From NCBI GenBank assembly GCA_019057385.1, contig JAHQJS010000004.1, positions 1,234,539 to 1,298,538 on the forward strand: a stretch of DNA of 64,000 bases, read 5' to 3'. Of the stretch, positions 51,082-64,000 are shown one piece after another. The DNA comes from Candidatus Borrarchaeum weybense. GTDB taxonomy: Archaea; Asgardarchaeota; Sifarchaeia; Borrarchaeales; Borrarchaeaceae. Within the stretch, counting starts at the first letter, position 1, and the number at the start of each line of letters is the position of its first letter. The notes under the pieces were generated by a model, which did not search any database, was not told the DNA's origin, and saw nothing but the letters and a program-made list of their open reading frames with translations. The position numbers were made by a program, and so were the translations under genes.

Positions 51082-52137
51082 CTAGTGTTTTCGATCCAAA
51101 AGAGTATCAGCTAAAGTGAAAAGTGTTTTTTTCGCATGTGAATCAGGAAAAAATTTCAGGCTATCTTTAGCCAAATTTACAAATTTAGTAACTTTATATT
51201 TTGCCACTTTAGGTGCATCAGTCATTTGAATGATATGACCTGCTTCTGTTATCTCTTCTTCGCTAATTTTATCTGTTTGGAGTATTTCTAATAATCTGCG
51301 TTTGTATGGCTCAGATAGTTGGTTTAAAGCATATAAAATTACAAAATTGCCCAACTTGTGTTCGATAATATCTTTTCTATGTTCTTTTCCAAATTGTTGA
51401 CTATTTCCAAATATATCAAGATAGTCGTCAGAAATCTGAAGAGCAATTCCCGCGTTCATTCCAAATTGCTTTGCTGCCGCAACATATTCATTATTTCCAT
51501 TTACGCAAACTACTCCTGCTTCACATGCTGCACTAACCAATGCGCCCGTTTTGTTTTTACATAAAGTAAAATAGTCATCTATGGTTGCATCTTGAAGGCG
51601 ATTTTTTATTAGATATTCATTATTTCGTCCAGTCTGTTCAAGAAGGATATCTAGTCGTTCACCAATAAGCATTCTCTGCATAGCACGAGAGAAAACCTTC
51701 TGAATTTTAGTTGGATATTCGGTTTTTTGAGCGGCTAAAACTATCGCTTCTCGATATTTCATGGCAATTAATACGGCGATAGGCATACCAAATTTGACCC
51801 ATGAAGTGGGCTGGTTTCGTCTAAGAATAGATCGATCAATAATATCATCAATTATTAGTGAATGAGTATGAATTAATTCTATTCCAGCCGCAGCATAAAT
51901 TGTAGACTCAAGTTTGCCACCTGCGGCATCACTAAAAGTCATAGTTAATAATGGGCGTAGGCGTTTCCCTCCTGTCTGAACCTGATATTTAACAGCATCA
52001 TAAAAATCTGGATTCGTTTCTTTTTGTAATAAATCTAACATAACCTCGCCAATGAGGTTTCTCCATTCCTCCATGGTATCACTCGATACTGTATCTAATA
52101 TCTCGCTATCGTTTTTTCCTTCGATTATTCCTTGCAA
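51082..52137 (-). CDS. Trans-polyprenyl diphosphate synthase
   Basis: GGKRLRP, DDIID..RR, KTG, QISDDYLD. Confidence 0.93.
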   Translation of the reverse strand: MQGIIEGKNDSEILDTVSSDTMEEWRNLIGEVMLDLLQKETNPDFYDAVKYQVQTGGKRLRPLLTMTFSDAAGGKLESTIYAAAGIELIHTHSLIIDDIIDRSILRRNQPTSWVKFGMPIAVLIAMKYREAIVLAAQKTEYPTKIQKVFSRAMQRMLIGERLDILLEQTGRNNEYLIKNRLQDATIDDYFTLCKNKTGALVSAACEAGVVCVNGNNEYVAAAKQFGMNAGIALQISDDYLDIFGNSQQFGKEHRKDIIEHKLGNFVILYALNQLSEPYKRRLLEILQTDKISEEEITEAGHIIQMTDAPKVAKYKVTKFVNLAKDSLKFFPDSHAKKTLFTLADTLLDRKH

Positions 52138-52183
52138 TGCTATCGAAACCTCTATGTTAGCCCTTATTTTAATATTATATAGT

Positions 52184-53368
52184 TTAGGACAGACTTTTTA
52201 CTTTATTTTTCAAATTTAGGTAAAAATTGAATAATCTTAGAGAAACAGGGAACTCGCAGCGGATTAGATGATCAAAATATTGTTGTGCTCGTTCATTAAA
52301 AAACGAAGAGATTGATCCATTGAGAAGCAATGAATCTGTGAATTTTCTGATTCTGAGACTATTCTTCATCCTGTTCCCAATTTCCTTTCTCCACAATCTT
52401 TCAAAGTTAGACAGTTCACTTTCACCTCGTAAATGTTTTAATATTGCTTCAGCGCCTATTCTTCCAGTAAGTAATGCACTAGGGATTCCTGCTCCGACAT
52501 GTGGCATTACGAAACCTCCCGCATCACCGATACATATCATATTCCCTCGTCTAGTTGCAGTATCCGAAAATGGTCCTTCAATTGGTACCAGCTTTGAGGA
52601 AGAACTTATGATCCGCCCTCCATCTAATAGATTTGAAGCTGTAGGATGCTCTTTAACAAACTTCCGAAAGTATTTTTTTATTTTTAAATTGTTAGTAAAA
52701 CGCTTTCGTATGCCTAAACCTACATTTGCTATGTGGTCTCCTTTAGGTATAATCCAGGCATATGCGCCTGGCGCGTATTCTTTACCAAAGTACATTTGAA
52801 CGGTGTCTGCATCAACATTTACATTGTCCATAATTGTAGTAAAGCATATAGCAAATTCATAATTTTTCCTACGAACCCCCTCAGTGAGTATTGATCTTGG
52901 ACCGTCAGCCCCAACAATCACTCGGGCTTTAACTTGCTTAATAGTGCCCATATGTTTCACATGGACGCTTCCATTTCCAGAGACACTTATAACAGGCGAA
53001 TCACATTTTATAATTGCGCCCGCATCCATCGCTCTTTCAACTAGGGCTTGGTCATATTTATCTCGAAAGACAATGTTGCTTTTAAATCTGGATTTTATCT
53101 TGTTGCCCATTGAATCGATAAGTTCTGTATATTCCGTAATATTTGCGAGCGTATTCTGGGGCGGCTCTATTAATTTTTCCGCATCTTTGGCTTTAGGAAA
53201 CAAACGACGCATTTCGGAGGGATGTGGTAACAATTCTCCACATCTAACTGGAAGTCCAATAGTTTTCTTTTTCTCAAAAAGTTGTACCTCCACATCCTTT
53301 TCAGCTAATATTCTAGAAATGGTTGCACCTGCTGGACCTCCTCCTATCACGATCACATCAGCAACCAT
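52184..53368 (-). CDS. Geranylgeranyl reductase family flavoprotein
   Basis: GGGPAG, GADG, YAWIIPKG, GDAGG..P..GAGI. Confidence 0.9.
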   Translation of the reverse strand: MVADVIVIGGGPAGATISRILAEKDVEVQLFEKKKTIGLPVRCGELLPHPSEMRRLFPKAKDAEKLIEPPQNTLANITEYTELIDSMGNKIKSRFKSNIVFRDKYDQALVERAMDAGAIIKCDSPVISVSGNGSVHVKHMGTIKQVKARVIVGADGPRSILTEGVRRKNYEFAICFTTIMDNVNVDADTVQMYFGKEYAPGAYAWIIPKGDHIANVGLGIRKRFTNNLKIKKYFRKFVKEHPTASNLLDGGRIISSSSKLVPIEGPFSDTATRRGNMICIGDAGGFVMPHVGAGIPSALLTGRIGAEAILKHLRGESELSNFERLWRKEIGNRMKNSLRIRKFTDSLLLNGSISSFFNERAQQYFDHLIRCEFPVSLRLFNFYLNLKNKVKSLS

Positions 53369-53372
53369 TCTA

Positions 53373-54320
53373 TCACAACACAATTAGAACAATGTAACGG
53401 ATTAGGAATCCTACAATGAGCAAGATTCCGGTAAATAAGTGCGTCATAACCGTCATAGCTTGCGCTGGTATTAGCTTAGGTGTATTCAGATAGTTTTTAT
53501 GGGCTATCTTCATTCCAGGGATTGCAAACAGCGGTAAAGTAATGAAACTAATAAGACAAAACAGCGGTAAGAACGAGAAAACAATACCCAAAGCTATAGC
53601 TGCATATGTGCCCAGAATCAAACCGTGATACACGCGTACCGCTGATAAGGAACGGCCGAGTCTGACAACTAAATGGTCTTTACCAACCTCTTTGTCGGCA
53701 ACATAATCGGGAAATTGATTGATCCAAATTACCGCTGTGATTAAAAATGCGACCGGAATTGATGCGATCAAAGGAACAAGCGTTATTTTCACCGTTTGTA
53801 CGTAATATGCGCCAAGGACACAAAGAGGACCGAAGTTGATACCTATAGCAACTTCTCCAAGTCCTTTAGAAGCAAGTGCTACATAAAAAAAGCCACATAA
53901 TGCGCCAATAAGTCCAAGTACAAGCAGAAACCAACCAATTACAAACGTGAAATACAGACCAATAGCGATACCTATGCCTAGCAAAATGAGTGATGCAACA
54001 AGGACATCACGAGGCTTTAGAATTCCCTCACGTAAAAAGTCGCTTCCTCCGCTGAATGGAGTAACTTCTTTGTTAATTATATCCGTACCGCTTTTAAAGT
54101 CAAAATAATCGTTGGCTATATTTGTACCTGCGTGGAGTGCGATTCCTCCAATTAACGCCAAGACAAAATAAAGTGGATAGAACGCATTTTCGTAAACAAA
54201 TGCAATAACAGATCCTAGGATTATCGGAATAATTACTGCGGTAAGGAATTTTGGTCTTGTAGCGTTAAACCAAAGTTTTATTGAGCTATATTTTATATGA
54301 GATACTTCAGTCATTCTCAT
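53373..54320 (-). CDS. menA: MenA-like UbiA prenyltransferase
   Basis: TRP, NIANDYFDFKSGTD, FSGGS, GLGE, NQFPDYVADKEVGK. Confidence 0.8.
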   Translation of the reverse strand: MRMTEVSHIKYSSIKLWFNATRPKFLTAVIIPIILGSVIAFVYENAFYPLYFVLALIGGIALHAGTNIANDYFDFKSGTDIINKEVTPFSGGSDFLREGILKPRDVLVASLILLGIGIAIGLYFTFVIGWFLLVLGLIGALCGFFYVALASKGLGEVAIGINFGPLCVLGAYYVQTVKITLVPLIASIPVAFLITAVIWINQFPDYVADKEVGKDHLVVRLGRSLSAVRVYHGLILGTYAAIALGIVFSFLPLFCLISFITLPLFAIPGMKIAHKNYLNTPKLIPAQAMTVMTHLFTGILLIVGFLIRYIVLIVL

Positions 54321-54443
54321 TACCCATTTTTTAGTTAGAACTCAGTTTATCATTAAATTTGTAATGAATTTGCCAAACTTAAGTTAAAAGCTAGTAAATG
54401 GTATAGGCATAATTGATTGTAAGTTGTATATATATTTCACAAA

Positions 54444-55796
54444 CTAGCGAACTAACAGCACTTTAGCATCGTGTTCGATTAATTTTGCACAATTACGTCC
54501 AGATCTTGCAGCACCTTCTATAGATGAATGCCAATTATCGTTATTTGCATAATTTCCAGCAATATAAAGCCCTTCAATCGGAGTTCTATTTGTATCTAGT
54601 TTTAATGACATAATCCCAGGGTATTGTGCCTCTATAGCATTCTTGATCTTCAAAACTTTCGTCCAGAGAAGATGCTTTTCAATTTCAGGAAAAAGATCTT
54701 TTAGATCCTCAATGAGAATGTCTACTATTTCCTCATCAGTCTTGTTCTGTAAAGATGGTTCAATGCAGGTTCCAGCAAGAAGGCTCTTCCCTGGAGGGGC
54801 AATAATTCCATATGGAGGCAGAATCTGCGCAACTGCAGTGATTAACTTGTTTGGTGTTAGGATCACGGATCTGTGATCTGTTAGTGACTTGTCTAGTCCG
54901 ATTTGTATTGCTAAGGCGGATGTATACTTAACTTCTTTAATTCGTTCACGGAAGTCGCTTGGGAAGTGTTTTTCAGAGACTAAATTAAATAGATTGATAA
55001 TAGGTCCTGTAAAAACGACAAAGGGCATTTCAAGAAATTCTTCAACGCCTTCACGGATATATTCAATTCCTTTTACTCGTTCATCCTCTATGACTACTCG
55101 TTTGACTGTACTATTTGTCCAAACTTCGCTCCCCATCCGTTCGCAATACCATTTCAAAGCTTTGGATATTACGCTTAGGCCAGCAGTCTCAACACCTTTT
55201 TCTGGATAATATACAGCCAAACTTTCTCTTTCTTTGACCCTCAGTTTTTCAGCATGTAGCCAAAGCCCACTAGATACTTGTTCAGGTGGTAGAAATGTTA
55301 TTGATTTGATGAGTGGGGCGTAAAAAAGTTCCAATGCTTTCTTGCTAAGATTTGTTTCACACCATGAGGCAAAATTATCCTCATCGTACTTCATAAAATA
55401 GTCTATATCGCTTTTTAAAATCCTGTTTGAATTTGTTAGAATTTTTACTCGATCGGCAAAATCGAGTAAACCAAATTTTAAAATACTAGAAATTTTTCGC
55501 TCTAATCTAAAGAATTTTTTGTTGTGATAAAATACAGCGCCTTCTCCAATATATCTCATACGAACGGCGGCCTTTTTCAGGAACGGTATAATGTATGAGT
55601 AACCTCCTAAGAAAAGGTGTAACCCTACATCATATGTATATCCCTTTTCTATAAAAGAGCGGACATGTCCACCCACTTCCGGCTCTTTTTCTAATATTAC
55701 ACTACGAGGCCTTAAGCGTTCCAATTCACAGGCACATAATAATCCAGAAATCCCCGCACCAATTATCCCTGCTTTTATTCGATGAGTTTTCAACAA
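54444..55796 (-). CDS. FAD-dependent oxidoreductase, phytoene desaturase/HpnE/amine oxidase superfamily
   Basis: GAGISGL, E....VGG, DVGLHLF, SIEGAARSG. Confidence 0.8.
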   Translation of the reverse strand: MLKTHRIKAGIIGAGISGLLCACELERLRPRSVILEKEPEVGGHVRSFIEKGYTYDVGLHLFLGGYSYIIPFLKKAAVRMRYIGEGAVFYHNKKFFRLERKISSILKFGLLDFADRVKILTNSNRILKSDIDYFMKYDEDNFASWCETNLSKKALELFYAPLIKSITFLPPEQVSSGLWLHAEKLRVKERESLAVYYPEKGVETAGLSVISKALKWYCERMGSEVWTNSTVKRVVIEDERVKGIEYIREGVEEFLEMPFVVFTGPIINLFNLVSEKHFPSDFRERIKEVKYTSALAIQIGLDKSLTDHRSVILTPNKLITAVAQILPPYGIIAPPGKSLLAGTCIEPSLQNKTDEEIVDILIEDLKDLFPEIEKHLLWTKVLKIKNAIEAQYPGIMSLKLDTNRTPIEGLYIAGNYANNDNWHSSIEGAARSGRNCAKLIEHDAKVLLVR

Positions 55797-55827
55797 AGCC
55801 CTCCTTCATATCTTTTAACGTACTTTT

Positions 55828-57009
55828 CTACAGGTCAAGTGCTTGCGCAACAATTTGAGTGATGTCAAGCATTTTTACTTTGGAATTTTTTTCTCTTATG
55901 GCTTCTTCCATATTCAAATAACATGCTGGGCATGCAGAAACGACACTATCTACTCCAAGGCTCTCAACTTCTTCAATCTTCTTCAAACCCATTTTTAAAG
56001 CGAGTTCAGGGTTTGTTATTTTTAAGACACCGCCACCACCACAGCACTTGCAATCTTGCTTTACTTTTGGAAGTTCAATAAAATCGAGATGCAGAATGCT
56101 TCGCAATATCTTTCGAGGTGCTTCATAGACACCACTTAATCTTCCTATCTCACATGGATCGTGATAAGTCGCTTTAATATCTTGAACTCTCTTAAATTTC
56201 AATTTTTTTGTATCAATTAATTCTGCAAGGTATTCTACTGCATGCTTCACTTCAAAAGGTAATTCTAGTCCTAAATGGGAATACTCTTCTTTCCAGCCTC
56301 TGTAACAGCCAGCACATGTAGTAATAAGTGTTTTAACGCCTAATTGTTCAAATTTTTTTATATTATGCTCTGCTAACTCTTTTGCAAGTGGAAATGCTCC
56401 TGATAGGAAGTATGGGCTACCACAGCACCATTCTTCTTCCCCTAATAGTGTGAAATCAATCGATAAATTATCTAAAATTTTGATAAAAGCTTCAGGGATT
56501 GACGCTAACCTCCCTGTGAAACTGCTTACACATCCTACAAAGAACCCTATCTCTGCATCACTGTTAAGATGCTCTTCTACTAGATCTTCAACCTCAAAAC
56601 TCCAAATAGTCCGATCTTCGTTTGGCATGTTATATACATTATGTTCCTCTTGCATAGATGCCTTAAGATCATGTAGAGGAGTTGGCCAGAGATTGTTTCT
56701 GAAAACCTCTGCTCTTACGGATTGCCAAAACGTGACCAAATCAATAGAAACCTGACAAACTTCTTTACAGTAGCCGCATAGACTACACTTAAAGACATTT
56801 TCTGCAAAGGTTTTGTTGATGTTATCCTTTCCTAAGAACAAATTTTTCGTAAAAAGAAGTTTACCTCTTGGACCAGCGGATTCCCATCTTGCTGTTAATT
56901 CTTTAAAGGCTGGGCAGACAGCAGAACAGTATCCGCATTGTGAACAAATAAATAATTCATCATCCATATTAAAGCGTCTAATTTCAGGTAACTTCATTGC
57001 TTTCTTCAC
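55828..57009 (-). CDS. Fe-S oxidoreductase, GlcF/HdrD-like (2x4Fe-4S + 2 CCG)
   Basis: CSQCGYC..VCP, CSLCGYC..VC, CCG, YHDPC, CCGGGG, ACPAC. Confidence 0.9.
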   Translation of the reverse strand: MKKAMKLPEIRRFNMDDELFICSQCGYCSAVCPAFKELTARWESAGPRGKLLFTKNLFLGKDNINKTFAENVFKCSLCGYCKEVCQVSIDLVTFWQSVRAEVFRNNLWPTPLHDLKASMQEEHNVYNMPNEDRTIWSFEVEDLVEEHLNSDAEIGFFVGCVSSFTGRLASIPEAFIKILDNLSIDFTLLGEEEWCCGSPYFLSGAFPLAKELAEHNIKKFEQLGVKTLITTCAGCYRGWKEEYSHLGLELPFEVKHAVEYLAELIDTKKLKFKRVQDIKATYHDPCEIGRLSGVYEAPRKILRSILHLDFIELPKVKQDCKCCGGGGVLKITNPELALKMGLKKIEEVESLGVDSVVSACPACYLNMEEAIREKNSKVKMLDITQIVAQALDL

Positions 57010-57010
57010 C

Positions 57011-58594
57011 TCAGAATAGAATTGCTGTTAAATCAATTAGTTCAATATCACAGAAAATAGAAAGAACCCAGAAAATTCCAAATGTAATGACGAAAATTAT
57101 AACAAGAAGGAAAAGAATGCCGAAGATTGGATGTCTGGTTGGTGGAAAGAATTTCCGTCCTATGCGTAGGAATGGTACTGACATCGAAAGTAAGGGCGAG
57201 AGAGGCATTCCAAAGCGAGTTGATACGTTAATTATCTTTTTTGGATTCATTATGTTATCTGGATCAAGATTTCTCTTTAGGGTTTTTATTTCTGCAAACT
57301 GTTTCTTGCCGAAAAGTTGTTCCGCAAATTTGGCAAGCCAAATTCCTATTCCGTATATTGTGCCTCCAAATTCAGTAGCAGTTGTTACAACTTCAAAAGA
57401 TCTGTAGAATCCCATAAGGAAGGAAATCTGTTTTCTTTCGTCATCCAAAAAAAAGGTCATTACAACTGCTTGACTATTGCTACTAACAATCCCTTCAATT
57501 CCCAATCGCTCGTTTTTTGATATTTTCCTCAGTCTTAGAATAAAATCTTTAAGATTTGATAACGGTACATACACCTCACTAGGCACGAGACTTGGTCCCA
57601 CTCGTTTCAAACGCATAGGATAAAAGCGTTCTCTCCATTCAGTCTCAGCTATTTCTTTATCTAATATTTTGCCCTTATTTCGCGCTACTATTTCTTTGAA
57701 GCTCATAACATTATGGCCGAGATCGGAATCCTCTTCATAGACTATCATGCTGATATAATGGTCGCTAGGTATGTTTTCTTCTTTCACGGATGTTTTGAAG
57801 TTCACATACTCTTTATCCATGAAATGAAGGTGATAAGGGGTTGTCAAATCAACTAGCTCTACCAAACAAGAAAATAACGCTTCTAATGATTCAAAAGCAG
57901 TAACAAATTTTTTTAGAGATGTTTTCGCTTTGATACGTAATTCAATCTTCGTAATTATCCCTAGAATGCCTTCGCTCTCAATGAAGTACTGCGTTACATC
58001 ATCTAAGATATCTAGTGAATGAATTCCATTAGCAGTATTTATTACCTCTCCACTAGGCAATACTATTTCCAATGACTTTACCTGAGCTTTAACATCGCCA
58101 TATTTTAAACTACCGATACCTGAACCTCCCTCTGCAACCCATCCCCCAAGGGTAGAAGATCTGGCTGAAGTGGGGTAACTACGGAGTGTAAATTTTCTTT
58201 TCTCTAAATATTCAAGCAGATCCTCCCAAATTACCCCTGATTCAACTAGAATCGTTAAATTTTTTTCATCAAACTCAAGAATTCTATTCAATCCTCTTGT
58301 ATCGATAATTATTCCTTCTGTTACTGGAATTGCACCACCATATCCTGAGGTTGCAGCTCCACGCGGAATAATTGGAATTTTATGATCTGCGCAATATTTA
58401 ATTAGCAAACTAATTTCTTCAGCAGAATTCGGTAATACTACTGCTGAAGGTTTCATTTTAAATAATAAATGTGTCATTCCAGGTAATTCGGCTATATCGC
58501 GAATATAGTGGGCCAGTTCGTATGGATCAACTGAAACTCTGTCTTCTCCAAAAATTTGTGCTAAATCAACTTCTAGTTGTTTTTTTGGAATCAA
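57011..58594 (-). CDS. FAD-binding oxidoreductase, GlcD/VAO family, with C-terminal TM helix
   Basis: PRGAATSGYGGA, STLGGW, SEGILGIIT, DPDNIMNP; lacks the EHG motif. Confidence 0.85.
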   Translation of the reverse strand: MIPKKQLEVDLAQIFGEDRVSVDPYELAHYIRDIAELPGMTHLLFKMKPSAVVLPNSAEEISLLIKYCADHKIPIIPRGAATSGYGGAIPVTEGIIIDTRGLNRILEFDEKNLTILVESGVIWEDLLEYLEKRKFTLRSYPTSARSSTLGGWVAEGGSGIGSLKYGDVKAQVKSLEIVLPSGEVINTANGIHSLDILDDVTQYFIESEGILGIITKIELRIKAKTSLKKFVTAFESLEALFSCLVELVDLTTPYHLHFMDKEYVNFKTSVKEENIPSDHYISMIVYEEDSDLGHNVMSFKEIVARNKGKILDKEIAETEWRERFYPMRLKRVGPSLVPSEVYVPLSNLKDFILRLRKISKNERLGIEGIVSSNSQAVVMTFFLDDERKQISFLMGFYRSFEVVTTATEFGGTIYGIGIWLAKFAEQLFGKKQFAEIKTLKRNLDPDNIMNPKKIINVSTRFGMPLSPLLSMSVPFLRIGRKFFPPTRHPIFGILFLLVIIFVITFGIFWVLSIFCDIELIDLTAILF

Positions 58595-58738
58595 ATGGCA
58601 ACACCTTTAATCTCTACAGATGGGGTTAAACCAAGAAAACTATATTAAAAAATTCATGGTCTTAAAAAATAAGGTGGGGAATGATATAAGGCATTGTAAA
58701 CGGCATGAGAGTTCTCTGCCATCATACTAAGCCTTTTT

Positions 58739-59209
58739 TCACTTTCTTAATAAAGTGATCAGAATATTAATCACTCCGATGATAGTGCCTAGTGCGAGCA
58801 ACCCAATGAGAATGCCGCTTGGCACTGACGACCACACTATTGTTGGATGAACCGCAGCAGGGTTTCCTTGTAATATAAGAGTTCCACCTTGAATTCCTGC
58901 TGTGAAAATCAGCAAGGGTGCAATGACACCTAAATTGTGTAAAATCAAATGTGCCAAAGAAAGCCAATCGTTAGGCTCTCCGCTAACATAATAGACAAAA
59001 GCCCAAGCGCTCAATCCAATGAATCCAGCGAGTAGATACATCGAATAGCCTACAAACACCCATGTGCCAGCACTGCCACCTGCGACCATCCGCGATAAAT
59101 CTAACCCTTCGCCACCTGGAGGAAATATAAAAAACACTGTTATGATTGCTGCGATTACGGCATGAATTAATGCGAACCATACAAATCGCTTAGCCCATTT
59201 TTCCGCCAA
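58739..59209 (-). CDS. 4-TM membrane protein with intramembrane His residues
   Basis: Four hydrophobic helices; LIHA, AHLILHN, VHP; TTG behind AGGTGA. Confidence 0.75.
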   Translation of the reverse strand: MAEKWAKRFVWFALIHAVIAAIITVFFIFPPGGEGLDLSRMVAGGSAGTWVFVGYSMYLLAGFIGLSAWAFVYYVSGEPNDWLSLAHLILHNLGVIAPLLIFTAGIQGGTLILQGNPAAVHPTIVWSSVPSGILIGLLALGTIIGVINILITLLRK

Positions 59210-59253
59210 TTTTTACTCACCTTTACTTTTTAGTAATGACACTGGAATATGAC

Positions 59254-59347
59254 TTAAGCAATGTGCTTCTTATTCTTTTGTGCTTAATTGTCGCTTTGAA
59301 AAGGTTAAAATAGTGCAAAGATTATAACTCTTTGCAAGAAAATTGCA
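59254..59347. promoter_or_regulatory. Divergent promoter with palindromic Lrp-type sites
   Basis: TGCAAAGA-TTATAAC-TCTTTGCA (59314-59336), TGCAA-N5-TTGCA (59333-59347), TTAAGCA..TGCTTAA. Confidence 0.55.
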
Positions 59348-59366
59348 CTGCGTTGTAGGGAGCAAA

Positions 59367-59996
59367 TTGAAATTTGATGATTTAGATATCAAAATCTTAT
59401 TCTATCTCACAAAAGATTCTAGGATTTCTTTTCGAAAAATTGCAGAAAAAATTGCTCATAACAACAATGAATATAAGAATATAAACTCTAGCACCGTATT
59501 TCGGCGGTTTAAACGTCTGAAAAAGTATTTGTCATTTAACACAAGATTTGAGAAAGATTTAATTTATCACTTTAACCTTATAGGTGTGGTTGTGAATATC
59601 GACGATATTATTAAAGTTATAAATGACTATAAGAATTGTCCTCGCGTAATAGAAATGTATCGGTTATCTGGAAAATTTAATCTGTTATTTAAAGGGGTTT
59701 TCGAAGACCCAATGATCTTTTCTTCATTTATTGATGAATTAAGAAGCGACCCAAGAATTAAAAGTGTTGAACTCTGCGTCAACTGTCAACAAGTTGCACC
59801 AGAGCCAATCGCAATTAAAGAAGTATTTGACGGTAATTCTAATGTTGTAGTTGCTCCTTGTGGTAGGAACTGTGATGAATGCGCTGATTATAAGGATGCG
59901 TGTCTAGGATGCCCTGCAACAAAATGGTATTGTAAGACGATCTTTCCAATTAAGGAGAAAGTCTTAAAAAACCCGACAAGAAATAGAAAAGATTGA
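59367..59996 (+). CDS. Lrp/AsnC regulator with C-terminal Cys-rich domain
   Basis: DDLDIKIL..L.KDSRISF HTH, RAM-like SGKFNL, PCGRNCDEC..CLGCP. Confidence 0.82.
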   Translation: MKFDDLDIKILFYLTKDSRISFRKIAEKIAHNNNEYKNINSSTVFRRFKRLKKYLSFNTRFEKDLIYHFNLIGVVVNIDDIIKVINDYKNCPRVIEMYRLSGKFNLLFKGVFEDPMIFSSFIDELRSDPRIKSVELCVNCQQVAPEPIAIKEVFDGNSNVVVAPCGRNCDECADYKDACLGCPATKWYCKTIFPIKEKVLKNPTRNRKD

Positions 59997-60041
59997 TCTA
60001 TGGCTTAAGGCAGTCCTCTTAAATTCAGGAGCTTTTTGTAC

Positions 60042-60371
60042 TCATGCACCGACTCGCTCTAAATATCGAGTGCAACAAGTTTCTTCATCTGATAAATGCA
60101 TGATTTCAACACATCCAAGTGGTTTTAGAACCGCGGAACAAACAAGTGGACGTTCATCGTCCAAGCTCTTACAAATAGCGATGGCTTCCATGTGATACTG
60201 GCAGAGTTGATTCCAGAGTTGAAGGATTTCAGAATCCGTCCTTGTTGTAATCACATTCCTGTTTAGACTTTTAGCACGATTTATCATTTTTTGTGAAATT
60301 TCATCTATTCTTGTTTTCAAATCATGCACTCTTTGCTCTCTTCTTCTTTTCTTATCGATTTCTTCTAGCAA
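60042..60371 (-). CDS. Hypothetical protein (coiled coil, Cys-rich tail)
   Basis: 109-aa ORF behind AGGTGA. Confidence 0.6.
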   Translation of the reverse strand: MLEEIDKKRRREQRVHDLKTRIDEISQKMINRAKSLNRNVITTRTDSEILQLWNQLCQYHMEAIAICKSLDDERPLVCSAVLKPLGCVEIMHLSDEETCCTRYLERVGA

Positions 60372-60533
60372 TGTTGTTATATTTTTTCACCTTCCCTATG
60401 ATTTTTTAAACTATCACAATAGATGATGATAGTTTTAGCAAATAAATGACATTGTCATATTTAAGAATACGTTTTGTGCATTTTGTTTTTTAGCAAAAAA
60501 AATGCGTTTTTCACAAAATTTTTCACAAAATTT

Positions 60534-62008: not shown

Positions 62009-63478
62009 CTAAATGTTTTCTAGAAGTTTTTGGCAAGATGGAACAATCGTTTGAAGCATAAGGGACGGAAATAATCCTAGTATGACTATCGGGATTACAA
62101 ATAGGGCTACAGAAATGAGTTCGATCAATTTCCCTTCGTGAGGTTCGTGATTTGCTATTTGCACTTGATTTTTTGGTCTCAGTACAATTCTGTCTATAGT
62201 CCAGACAAAATAGGCTGTAACGATTCCAGGCGCCAACACTACTATTGCAGTGAAAGAGAATGCGTTAATAGCCCCCATGAAAATCATAAATTCACTTACA
62301 AAGCTGCTGAGAAATGGAAAGCCCAGAGCAGCAAGAGCACCAAATACAAACAAAGCAGTTGTTCTTGGCATTGTATGCAGCATGTCGCTGAGTTTATCGA
62401 TCTCTCTGGTCCCAGCATTATGTTGTATTACCCCGGAAAGGAGAAAGAGAAGACCTACAGCACATGCATGATTAAACATTTGGAACACAGCGCCAGATAA
62501 TCCCAGAAGATTACCAGTAAATGCACCTAATAGCACAAACCCCATATGATTTATGGACGTAAGTGCAATCATCATCTTTAAATCACGTTGAACTAATGCA
62601 ACACCTGCGCCGTAAAAAATCGTCAATAGAGCCAAACCTATGAAGAAGTAAGCATATTCAAATGAAATCTCTGGGAACAGTGATAAATTAATTCGAATAA
62701 AGCCATATCCCCCCATTTTCAGCAATACACCTGCTAACAAAACACTGATTGGTGCAGGTGCTTCTACATGAGCATCTAACAGCCATGTGTGTAGGGGTAC
62801 GACAGGAAGTTTCACAGCGAAGCCAAAGAACGTGGTAATCATTATTATCAGTTGAAGTGGTTTTGCGATTTTGGTGTCCATGAGAATTAAAAAATCAAAA
62901 GTGTGCGGCGTTGCTGCCAGGAAGAGCAAAATGAATCCAATGAACATTAAAGAGCTTCCAGCATTAGTAAAAATTATAAACTTCATGGCGGCATATTTGC
63001 GGTTAGGTCCGCCCCATATCCCGATTAGGAGAAACATAGGTACAAGAACTAGCTCCCAGAATAAGAAAAACACGATTAAATTGAGAGAAACGAAAACACC
63101 GAGAAGTCCCATTTCAAGTATGAGGAGAAGTCCGTAGTATTGTGCTATCCTTGAAGAGATCATACTCCATGAGCCTAGTGCGGCAAGCATAGTTAGGAGG
63201 GTTGTTGCAAGTACTAATGGCAAACTAATGCCATCGACACCCACACTGTAATTTATGCCTACGGACGGTATCCATGTGATATTCTCTGAGAAGAGAAAGC
63301 CATCTCCAATAGGGTTGGCAGATATCCATAAATAGAGCGCGAGAACAAACAATACGATCGTAAATCCAATTCCAATACTCTTCCCAACTAATTCATCTTT
63401 CTTTCCAAAGCCATAAGTAAGAATTGCACCAATAAGTGCGATAATGAGCATCCATGAAATTATTCCTATTCCTAGCAT
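62009..63478 (-). CDS. nuoM: NADH/ferredoxin:quinone oxidoreductase subunit M
   Basis: GVDGIS, FWELVLVP, PLHTWLLDAHVEAP, LLKMGGYG. Confidence 0.94.
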   Translation of the reverse strand: MLGIGIISWMLIIALIGAILTYGFGKKDELVGKSIGIGFTIVLFVLALYLWISANPIGDGFLFSENITWIPSVGINYSVGVDGISLPLVLATTLLTMLAALGSWSMISSRIAQYYGLLLILEMGLLGVFVSLNLIVFFLFWELVLVPMFLLIGIWGGPNRKYAAMKFIIFTNAGSSLMFIGFILLFLAATPHTFDFLILMDTKIAKPLQLIIMITTFFGFAVKLPVVPLHTWLLDAHVEAPAPISVLLAGVLLKMGGYGFIRINLSLFPEISFEYAYFFIGLALLTIFYGAGVALVQRDLKMMIALTSINHMGFVLLGAFTGNLLGLSGAVFQMFNHACAVGLLFLLSGVIQHNAGTREIDKLSDMLHTMPRTTALFVFGALAALGFPFLSSFVSEFMIFMGAINAFSFTAIVVLAPGIVTAYFVWTIDRIVLRPKNQVQIANHEPHEGKLIELISVALFVIPIVILGLFPSLMLQTIVPSCQKLLENI

Positions 63479-64000
63479 CTATGGAAACCCTCCTAGGACA
63501 AATAATACAATAATAACAATCACAACAACTCCTGTGGTCAGAAGTGTTACATACTGTTCAATTATTCCTGTCTGGAGCTGTCCAAAAGCTTTAGAAAGTT
63601 TTTTGCCAGTTCCAGCAACTCCGTTGACGAATCCATCAACTATTCGTTGATCAATAAATTCGTTAGCTTTTGAGAGTGCTATTCCGAGCTTTGCAATAAA
63701 GTAACTCAAGGAGTTGAAGCCTCGTGTTTCGAGTCCTGTAGAACTGAAACGTGCACCGTCTATTGCCTTTTCCGCAAAAACATAATGAGATTTATCAATG
63801 ATTCCAAGTTCGAACTTATCTAGTAATGCCTTGAACATCCTTATTGTTCCGTAAACGAATACTTTGTAATAGAAGGCGTTGATATACCATCGATTTGTTA
63901 GGAACTTATGGAGACTTGCAATAATTGGATTTCTGGCTATAGTTATGGCAGAATACTTCTGTTTAATGTAGATGTAGTAACTGGGGATCAGTCCCAGAAA
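63479..64000 (-). CDS. nuoL: NuoL C-terminal part (runs off window), with extended lateral helix
   Basis: Frame open to the window edge; NRWYINAFY..IVDGFVNG..LQTG..Y + final TM. Confidence 0.88.
   Translation of the reverse strand, partial: FLGLIPSYYIYIKQKYSAITIARNPIIASLHKFLTNRWYINAFYYKVFVYGTIRMFKALLDKFELGIIDKSHYVFAEKAIDGARFSSTGLETRGFNSLSYFIAKLGIALSKANEFIDQRIVDGFVNGVAGTGKKLSKAFGQLQTGIIEQYVTLLTTGVVVIVIIVLFVLGGFP

Follow-up and report, generated by a model that had tools for sequence, protein, structure and literature searches.

A 109-residue NuoL lateral helix and a probable five-pump complex I-like operon in the Asgard archaeon Candidatus Borrarchaeum weybense

The window, a 64,000-nucleotide stretch of Candidatus Borrarchaeum weybense (assembly GCA_019057385.1, contig JAHQJS010000004.1), ended inside a nuoL gene whose product carried a lateral helix (HL) two modules longer than that of ordinary NuoL; this gene was probably part of a 13-gene complex I-like operon with five antiporter-like subunits, all five of which would be arranged in one membrane arm. 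The window corresponded to G000:C4:1234539-1298538, with G000 being the source genome (4.18 Mb, estimated 100% complete, 7% estimated contamination). Contig C4 stopped at the last base of the window, and thus nuoL was cut by the assembly and the 5' end of its ORF was open. The window contained the following components of the operon:

63479..64000, minus strand: 3' end of nuoL, encoding the C-terminal 173 aa (P0001) with the end of TM15, HL, and TM16
63566..63892, minus strand: HL span from RWYINAFY to LQTG, 109 aa
63662..63820, minus strand: 53 extra residues (P0001 residues 61-113), placed by comparison with a short-helix paralogue
63488..63553, minus strand: TM16, the hydrophobic anchor after QTG, YVTLLTTGVVVIVIIVLFVLGG, mean hydrophobicity 0.91
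62009..63478, minus strand: nuoM, 489 aa, a canonical NuoM (PF00361, E 6e-68) abutting the nuoL stop codon
60534..61988, minus strand: nuoN, 484 aa, the last gene of the operon (PF00361, E 9e-76), 20 nt past nuoM

The nuoL C-terminus of the window had 87% and 80% identity to same-genus NuoL C-termini, and P0001 aligned with the full-length NuoL of relatives (alignment A1). The window nuoM product displayed Glu in TM5, Lys in TM7 and TM8, and Glu in TM12, and it was placed in trees with E. coli NuoM and other NuoM; the nuoN product displayed the NuoN pattern (Lys in TM12) and fell within the NuoN clade. The region past nuoN (window 52000-60400) harbored genes for an AsnC-type regulator, a GlcD-like FAD oxidase with an Fe-S/CCG partner, an amine-oxidase-like flavoprotein, a UbiA prenyltransferase, a geranylgeranyl reductase, and a polyprenyl synthase, with these gene names being taken from the annotation of the identical contig L011.

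The earlier note on this DNA had counted 109 aa at 63566-63892 and had placed three motifs 27 and 26 aa apart within this span, and both counts were exact: RWYINAFY started at residue 37 and LQTG at residue 142 of P0001, while KFELGIID, GLETRGFN, and FIDQRIVD started at residues 62, 89, and 115, respectively. Its figure of about 55 aa for ordinary NuoL agreed with the 52-57 aa found in E. coli and ordinary archaeal NuoL; in E. coli NuoL, which the note had proposed for comparison, the same span occupied 52 aa versus 109 aa here. Compared to the paralogous NuoL of the same genome and genus, the excess of HL was one gap of 53 aa (alignment A1); it lay between VFVYG.IR.. and.IDQ.I.D and corresponded to one gap of 53 columns in both short paralogues, that of G000 and that of Candidatus Borrarchaeum yapensis (G004) (alignments A1 and A2), with the exact position of the insert inside a repeat being arbitrary. 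The HL spans among relatives fell into three discrete classes, namely about 53-61, 81-87, and 109-114 aa.

The three units had also been described as alignable with one another; their motif spacing was confirmed, while the window sequence itself was too diverged to prove their repeat nature. The similarity of P0001 to itself at lags 26 and 27 was no higher than in shuffles (BLOSUM autocorrelation), no DNA tandem repeat of period 78-81 was found, and an HMM of the module built from other lineages was significant only for unit 3 (iE 1e-5), with iE about 1 for units 1 and 2. A profile of nine diverged 109-aa helices peaked at lags 27, 53, and 26 (z 2.7-2.9), which was weakly significant given that its maximum was reached by 190/1000 shuffles over 55 lags. 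Proteins from other lineages (for example P0110, P0073, P0071, and P0179) contained near-perfect 26-27 aa tandem copies at the corresponding place, and thus module duplication was the natural reading of how HL has grown. On this comparative basis, the 53 extra residues may reasonably be taken as about two modules of 26-27 aa. A 268-aa metagenomic fragment of a NuoL C-terminus (P0161) displayed a different kind of lateral-helix elaboration, in which two helix modules were separated by about 60 hydrophobic residues that looked like a pair of membrane helices.

The AlphaFold2 model of the orthologue P0005, used for secondary structure, had helices at residues 602-674 and 686-708 followed by TM16 at 712-733, with pLDDT values of 41-72 across HL. 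The helix was amphipathic, with a mean moment of 0.31 versus 0.22 +/- 0.04 in shuffles (22/1000 as high). The model and the moment test together gave the NuoL hallmark of a C-terminal amphipathic lateral helix plus one TM anchor.

The genes that probably make up the rest of the operon were found at the head of contig C7 of the same genome, which carried nuoA, B, C, D, H, I, J, K, M', and M'' followed by the 5' half of a nuoL, with gaps of 0-8 nt around M' and M''. The whole operon had the 13-gene layout nuoA-B-C-D-H-I-J-K-M'-M''-L-M-N without the NADH module NuoEFG, and a search of the entire 4.18-Mb G000 genome for NuoF (PF01512) gave no match. Three genes of the C7 head were of particular relevance:

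G000 C7:2160-3647: M', 495 aa, full-length PF00361 plus PF00662
G000 C7:579-2159: M'', 526 aa, full-length PF00361 plus PF00662
G000 C7:6041-7117: nuoD, Complex1_49kDa

Pfam families detected across C7:1-8102 were Oxidored_q6 (B), Complex1_30kDa (C), Complex1_49kDa (D), NADHdh (H), Fer4 (I), Oxidored_q3 (J), Oxidored_q2 (K), and PF00361; Oxidored_q4 (NuoA) was detected in the identical operon of L037, and all eleven core subunit families were thereby encoded together. The genome-wide count suggested in the earlier note yielded ten PF00361 matches in G000, and the extra antiporter-like genes, which it had expected upstream or elsewhere, were located as two NuoM-type genes between nuoK and nuoL. 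The operon thus encoded five antiporter-like subunits: NuoL, three of the NuoM type, and NuoN. The fit that the note had drawn between a double insertion and two extra antiporter-like genes was matched by the C7 head of G000, by Candidatus Borrarchaeota Yap75.bin3.45 (G002), and by a JGI contig, each of which carried M' plus M''.

M' and M'' both retained the TM5 Glu, TM7 Lys, TM8 Lys, and TM12 Glu that make up the NuoM signature, with NuoN and NuoL having Lys in TM12; the closest solved structures to both proteins were NdhD, MbhH, and NuoM. Both fell in the NuoM-type superclade. The L-proximal extra genes of other lineages were the partners of M'' in the trees (support 98-99), and M'' was also related to the lone additional gene found in Asgard four-pump operons. 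M' and the distal extras of L029 and of the type I clusters of a second Asgard family, f14, formed a separate clade (support 100). Since M' and M'' each formed well-supported clades across lineages, the layout appeared to be old and conserved. The product of the long-helix nuoL grouped in trees with E. coli and archaeal NuoL, and it had PF00662 plus PF00361, HL, and TM16.

NuoD of the five-pump operon had no CxxC pair and three Cys in total; it lacked the Ni-Fe ligands, indicating a complex I-like enzyme rather than a hydrogenase. A group 4 [NiFe] hydrogenase was ruled out on this ground, and an Mrp antiporter was ruled out because nuoA-K was complete and the operon had no other genes. A His of NuoD stood beside the column of E. 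coli H224, in a loop gapped in the alignment, and the position of the quinone-site Tyr (E. coli Y273) was occupied by Leu within ERQCLPD, as was likewise the case in related archaeal operons.

The source genome contained two further clusters of related genes outside the window. The second cluster was split between C2:25306-37101 (L024) and C7:903400-905039 (L023): its C2 part had the 3' end of a short-helix nuoL' (116 aa), two PF00361 genes, and the A-type ATPase membrane genes I, AC39, and c, followed by NuoD', H', I', A', and B'. NuoD' kept both Ni-Fe CxxC pairs (CGIC and CFSC, the latter within DPCFSC), and this cluster was therefore assigned as a group 4 [NiFe] hydrogenase with a complex I-type arm. 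A-type ATP synthase membrane genes (I, AC39/d, and c) were found in or beside nuo-like clusters of several Asgard genomes:

G000 C2:29617-33187: A-type ATPase membrane genes
L018:3605-7154 (G002): A-type ATPase membrane genes
L020:671-4238 (G004): A-type ATPase membrane genes
L033:2189-5538: A-type ATPase membrane genes

The V_ATPase_I gene on C2 was the only one in G000, with the catalytic A and B genes on contigs C3 and C5. The third cluster (C7:245948-249450, L025) was composed of a NuoL-like gene (652 aa), in which the TM5 Glu was replaced by Lys, and an antiporter-like gene (547 aa) whose product had no TM7 or TM8 Lys.

Four contig ends carried nuoL sequence. The tails of C4 and C2 were both nuoL 3' parts, with their last 55 bases in common and 80% likeness over 155 nt; the head and the tail of C7 were both outward-reading nuoL 5' parts, 80.7% alike over 570 nt, and the C7 tail additionally carried nuoC', a split nuoJ', nuoK', and the 5' half of nuoL'. 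Four contig ends inside nuoL indicated two nuoL genes whose middle was too similar to assemble. The two paralogues were near-identical in this genome over a core of about 1.1 kb, a stretch lying between the window's end and C7:1 that the G000 assembly lacks and that was read from L037, L038, and L011, and they were only about 80% alike in same-genus G004; the HL plus TM16 regions of the two were only 23-47% identical. This pattern suggests a recent gene conversion confined to the core; it interrupts the G000 assembly and renders other assemblies mosaic.

Same-genus genomes served for pairing the halves. G002 carried on a single contig nuoA-K (A, B, C, D, H, I, J, K), M', M'' (531 aa), nuoL, nuoM, and nuoN, and its nuoL product was 738 aa with the long helix; the JGI contig carried nuoA-K, two genes for proteins of 494 aa and 532 aa, and a long nuoL (741 aa), followed by the next gene; the nuoK'-linked nuoL of G004 was of the short type (676 aa). 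M' of G002 (L018:13072-14561) was split into ORFs of 149 aa and 347 aa, by either a frameshift error of the MAG or pseudogene formation; G000, L037, the JGI contig, and L029 each had an unbroken M' of 494-495 aa. The NuoL N-terminus of the C7 head had 83% identity to the long NuoL of G002 and 73% to the short NuoL of G004, while that of the C7 tail had 77% and 83%, respectively; likewise, the head nuoK was 89% identical to nuoK of the long operon in G002 and the tail nuoK' 95% identical to that of the short cluster in G004. Across independent assemblies, all five full-length long-helix NuoL had the C7-head-type N-terminus and all three short ones the tail-type. From these pairings, we infer that the long-helix 3' half presumably belonged to the five-gene operon at the C7 head in G000.

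Two rival readings concern the assembly. The long 3' half might instead be joined to the nuoK'-linked 5' half of the C7 tail, as a product of recombination between the two near-identical nuoL cores, which would give a K'-L-M-N cluster without extra pumps and leave the five-gene head with a short helix. Such an exchange would agree with L037 (JAHPYX010000188.1, GCA_019058535.1, same population), in which nuoA-K-M'-M'' was joined to a 688-aa NuoL with the short C-terminus and hydrogenase-cluster genes came after it, and an inversion is conceivable because the two 5' halves lay inverted at the two ends of C7. However, the assemblies disagreed with each other through the repeat: L037 and the Logan contig L038 differed at five sites (nt 1097-1213), L011 with the long C-terminus differed from both of them at seven sites (nt 1575-1705), and L038 ended exactly at the shared 55-mer; the collapsed repeat had therefore been threaded arbitrarily, and the L037 join was unreliable. 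The contigs with exact protein matches (L011, L037, L038, L039, and L040) either stopped in the repeat or threaded it inconsistently and so did not phase the nuoL halves of G000, and a comparison of the nuoL core with relatives gave no phasing signal. Given also the N-terminus types and nuoK identities above, and given that swapped halves would leave one cluster with two nuoA/B/D/H/I sets and the other with none, this exchange was considered improbable. Still far less probable was an assembly or annotation artefact behind the long helix: the gene ran into a contig end and the genome had some estimated contamination, but the same 109-aa span, in an open and conserved reading frame, was present in independent NCBI, JGI, ENA, and Logan assemblies, and near-identical long-helix sequence occurred in sediment metagenomes of about 10 studies. 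A search of sequencing runs for this sequence returned 20 DNA data sets, all of them Logan contigs or short reads, with no RNA set listed and no long raw reads among them.

Helix length was compared with the number of pump genes in a survey of uncut loci of species-representative genomes, with the query covering NuoL with the NRW[YF]IN motif and with antiporter-like ORFs beside nuoL being counted by an HMM built from our own set. The counts, which were not independent because many of the loci came from related Thaumarchaeota, were as follows:

HL of 50-62 aa: three antiporter-like genes in 18/18 loci
HL of 72-90 aa (about 83 aa): four genes, one upstream and two downstream of nuoL, in 19/21 loci
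HL of 109 aa: five genes, two upstream and two downstream of nuoL, in 1/1 locus

The earlier note had linked one insertion of about 26 aa to one extra NuoM, and the middle class thereby bore this out. The note had also considered that relatives with plain L-M-N arms might have equally long helices; none did among the 18 three-gene loci with about 55 aa, although two other three-gene loci (L034 and L035) reached about 85 aa. Five genes plus a 109-aa helix were additionally found in (i) the second Asgard family f14 (L029, which equals L107, and L111, L113, and L114) and (ii) Candidatus Geothermarchaeales (L031 and L032). These comparisons strongly suggest that helix length tracks pump-gene number in this NuoL family, as a rule that is not absolute.

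The exceptions bear on a third rival, in which helix length and pump number are mechanically unlinked: M' and M'' would be alternatives to NuoM, as are the NdhD/NdhF isoforms of cyanobacterial NDH-1, or would act outside the complex, and the extra 53 residues would be surplus strap or a cover for lipid or a small subunit. It would account for the f14 type II clusters, which had a 109-aa helix but four pump genes within 16-19 kb and thus one unmatched module in a three-module helix:

L108:3016-9776: f14 type II cluster
L110:5448-12175: f14 type II cluster
L112:6955-13715: f14 type II cluster

These clusters occurred in the same f14 genomes as five-gene clusters. The same rival would also account for L034 and L035, and for L053 and L093, which had fewer genes than their helices would call for. 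Against it, helix class matched gene number in 38/40 uncut species-representative loci of this family and in every locus with orthologues of both M' and M''; moreover, M' and M'' were embedded in the operon, with nuoK on one side and nuoL on the other, their frames abutting and their charge sets complete. An unlinked helix was accordingly judged unlikely, though it carries more weight than either of the assembly-based rivals.

Under the preferred five-pump reading, the five antiporter-like subunits would line up in one membrane arm; as inferred from complex I structures, HL would start at NuoL and run along the other four subunits, with TM16 anchoring it at the proximal end. A span of about 55 aa covers two subunits, and thus 109 aa would cover four, each subunit taking up about 27 residues or about 40 A of helix. 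More speculatively, such an enzyme might move about six instead of four ions per two electrons. With reduced ferredoxin as the driver, it might then conserve more energy; in the reverse direction, the membrane potential might push electrons from quinol up to ferredoxin. The span from ferredoxin to menaquinone is about 0.4 V by standard potentials, which would barely suffice for six ions if the membrane potential were modest.

A wider interpretation is held with less confidence and is favored only by a narrow balance: a five-pump, probably ferredoxin-linked enzyme would be an old archaeal design (present in at least two Asgard families and in Geothermarchaeales), its strap helix would serve as a modular ruler, adding about 27 residues for each pump, so that one, two, or three sequence modules would correspond to three, four, or five pumps, and the enzyme would have the highest ion/electron ratio of any complex I relative and represent a second independent route to five pumps besides that of the bacterial Manganitrophaceae enzyme. 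The number of ions per electron pair in complex I sets the energy yield of respiration, and the same ratio decides whether the enzyme can run backwards to make low-potential reductant. If the interpretation is true, nature would provide a graded series of three, four, and five pumps with helix steps of about 27 residues, suited to testing coupling and the role of the strap helix, and also an archaeal five-pump enzyme differently built from the bacterial one that was published as unique. The hosts include Asgard archaea, whose energy metabolism is debated with regard to eukaryote origins, and these Asgard archaea are anaerobic sediment organisms living near the thermodynamic limit, where stoichiometry counts most.

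For complex I of Sifarchaeia, ferredoxin has been suggested as the donor and menaquinone as the acceptor (PMC9723677), and papers on complex I of Sifarchaeia and other Asgard archaea made no mention of extra pumps in this lineage (PMC9723677; bioRxiv 10.1101/2024.07.04.601786). Literature on a '3M' design or on two additional NuoM was confined to the Manganitrophaceae paper (see below) among the sources consulted, in which Chadwick et al. 2018 was covered through papers citing it. The '2M' complex I was thus already known, and what appears to be new here is a '3M' arrangement that several archaeal lineages have conserved and in which HL carries a double insertion.

The '2M' complex I was reportedly described by Chadwick, Hemp, Fischer and Orphan in 2018 (ISME J 12:2668). 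According to three citing papers, it has an extra NuoM-type gene plus an insertion of about 26 aa in the NuoL HL, in a NuoEFG-independent cluster (PMC9040806, PMC7300363, PMC6606698), and two of these place an archaeal clade of it in Thaumarchaeota (PMC9040806, PMC7300363). The present operon and '2M' complex I shared a NuoEFG-less cluster with additional NuoM-type genes and a lengthened HL, and M'' was related to the extra gene of Asgard four-pump operons; however, '2M' has one extra and one insert, while the present operon had two extras, a 53-aa insert, and five pumps, and its M' formed a separate clade.

Complex_I_3 of Candidatus Manganitrophaceae (Yu et al. 2022, mBio) has five predicted ion-pumping subunits, a number that its authors called unique (PMC9040806). 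In this bacterial complex, two MrpD-like subunits replace NuoL and are accompanied by two NuoM plus NuoN, the helix of MrpD2 has one 26-aa insertion, and reverse electron flow to a low-potential carrier was proposed as its function (PMC9040806). In the present operon, one cluster likewise encoded five antiporter-like subunits (M', M'', L, M, and N), but it was archaeal and displayed a different composition, namely a single NuoL with a double insertion plus three NuoM-type subunits in addition to NuoN.

Cyanobacterial NDH-1, the Methanothrix Fpo-like complex, and the present operon all contained NuoA, B, C, D, H, I, J, K, L, M, and N and lacked NuoEFG, but only three antiporter-like subunits are present in NDH-1 and Fpo-like enzymes, whose HL spans about 55 aa, compared to five and 109 aa here. 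The group 4 [NiFe] hydrogenase cluster on C2 of the same genome had a NuoL' core 83-97% identical to that of the window NuoL, and thus the two were recent paralogues or had been gene-converted; the C2 cluster nevertheless differed from the window operon in having NuoD' with the Ni-Fe CxxC pairs, a 56-aa NuoL' helix, and three pump genes.
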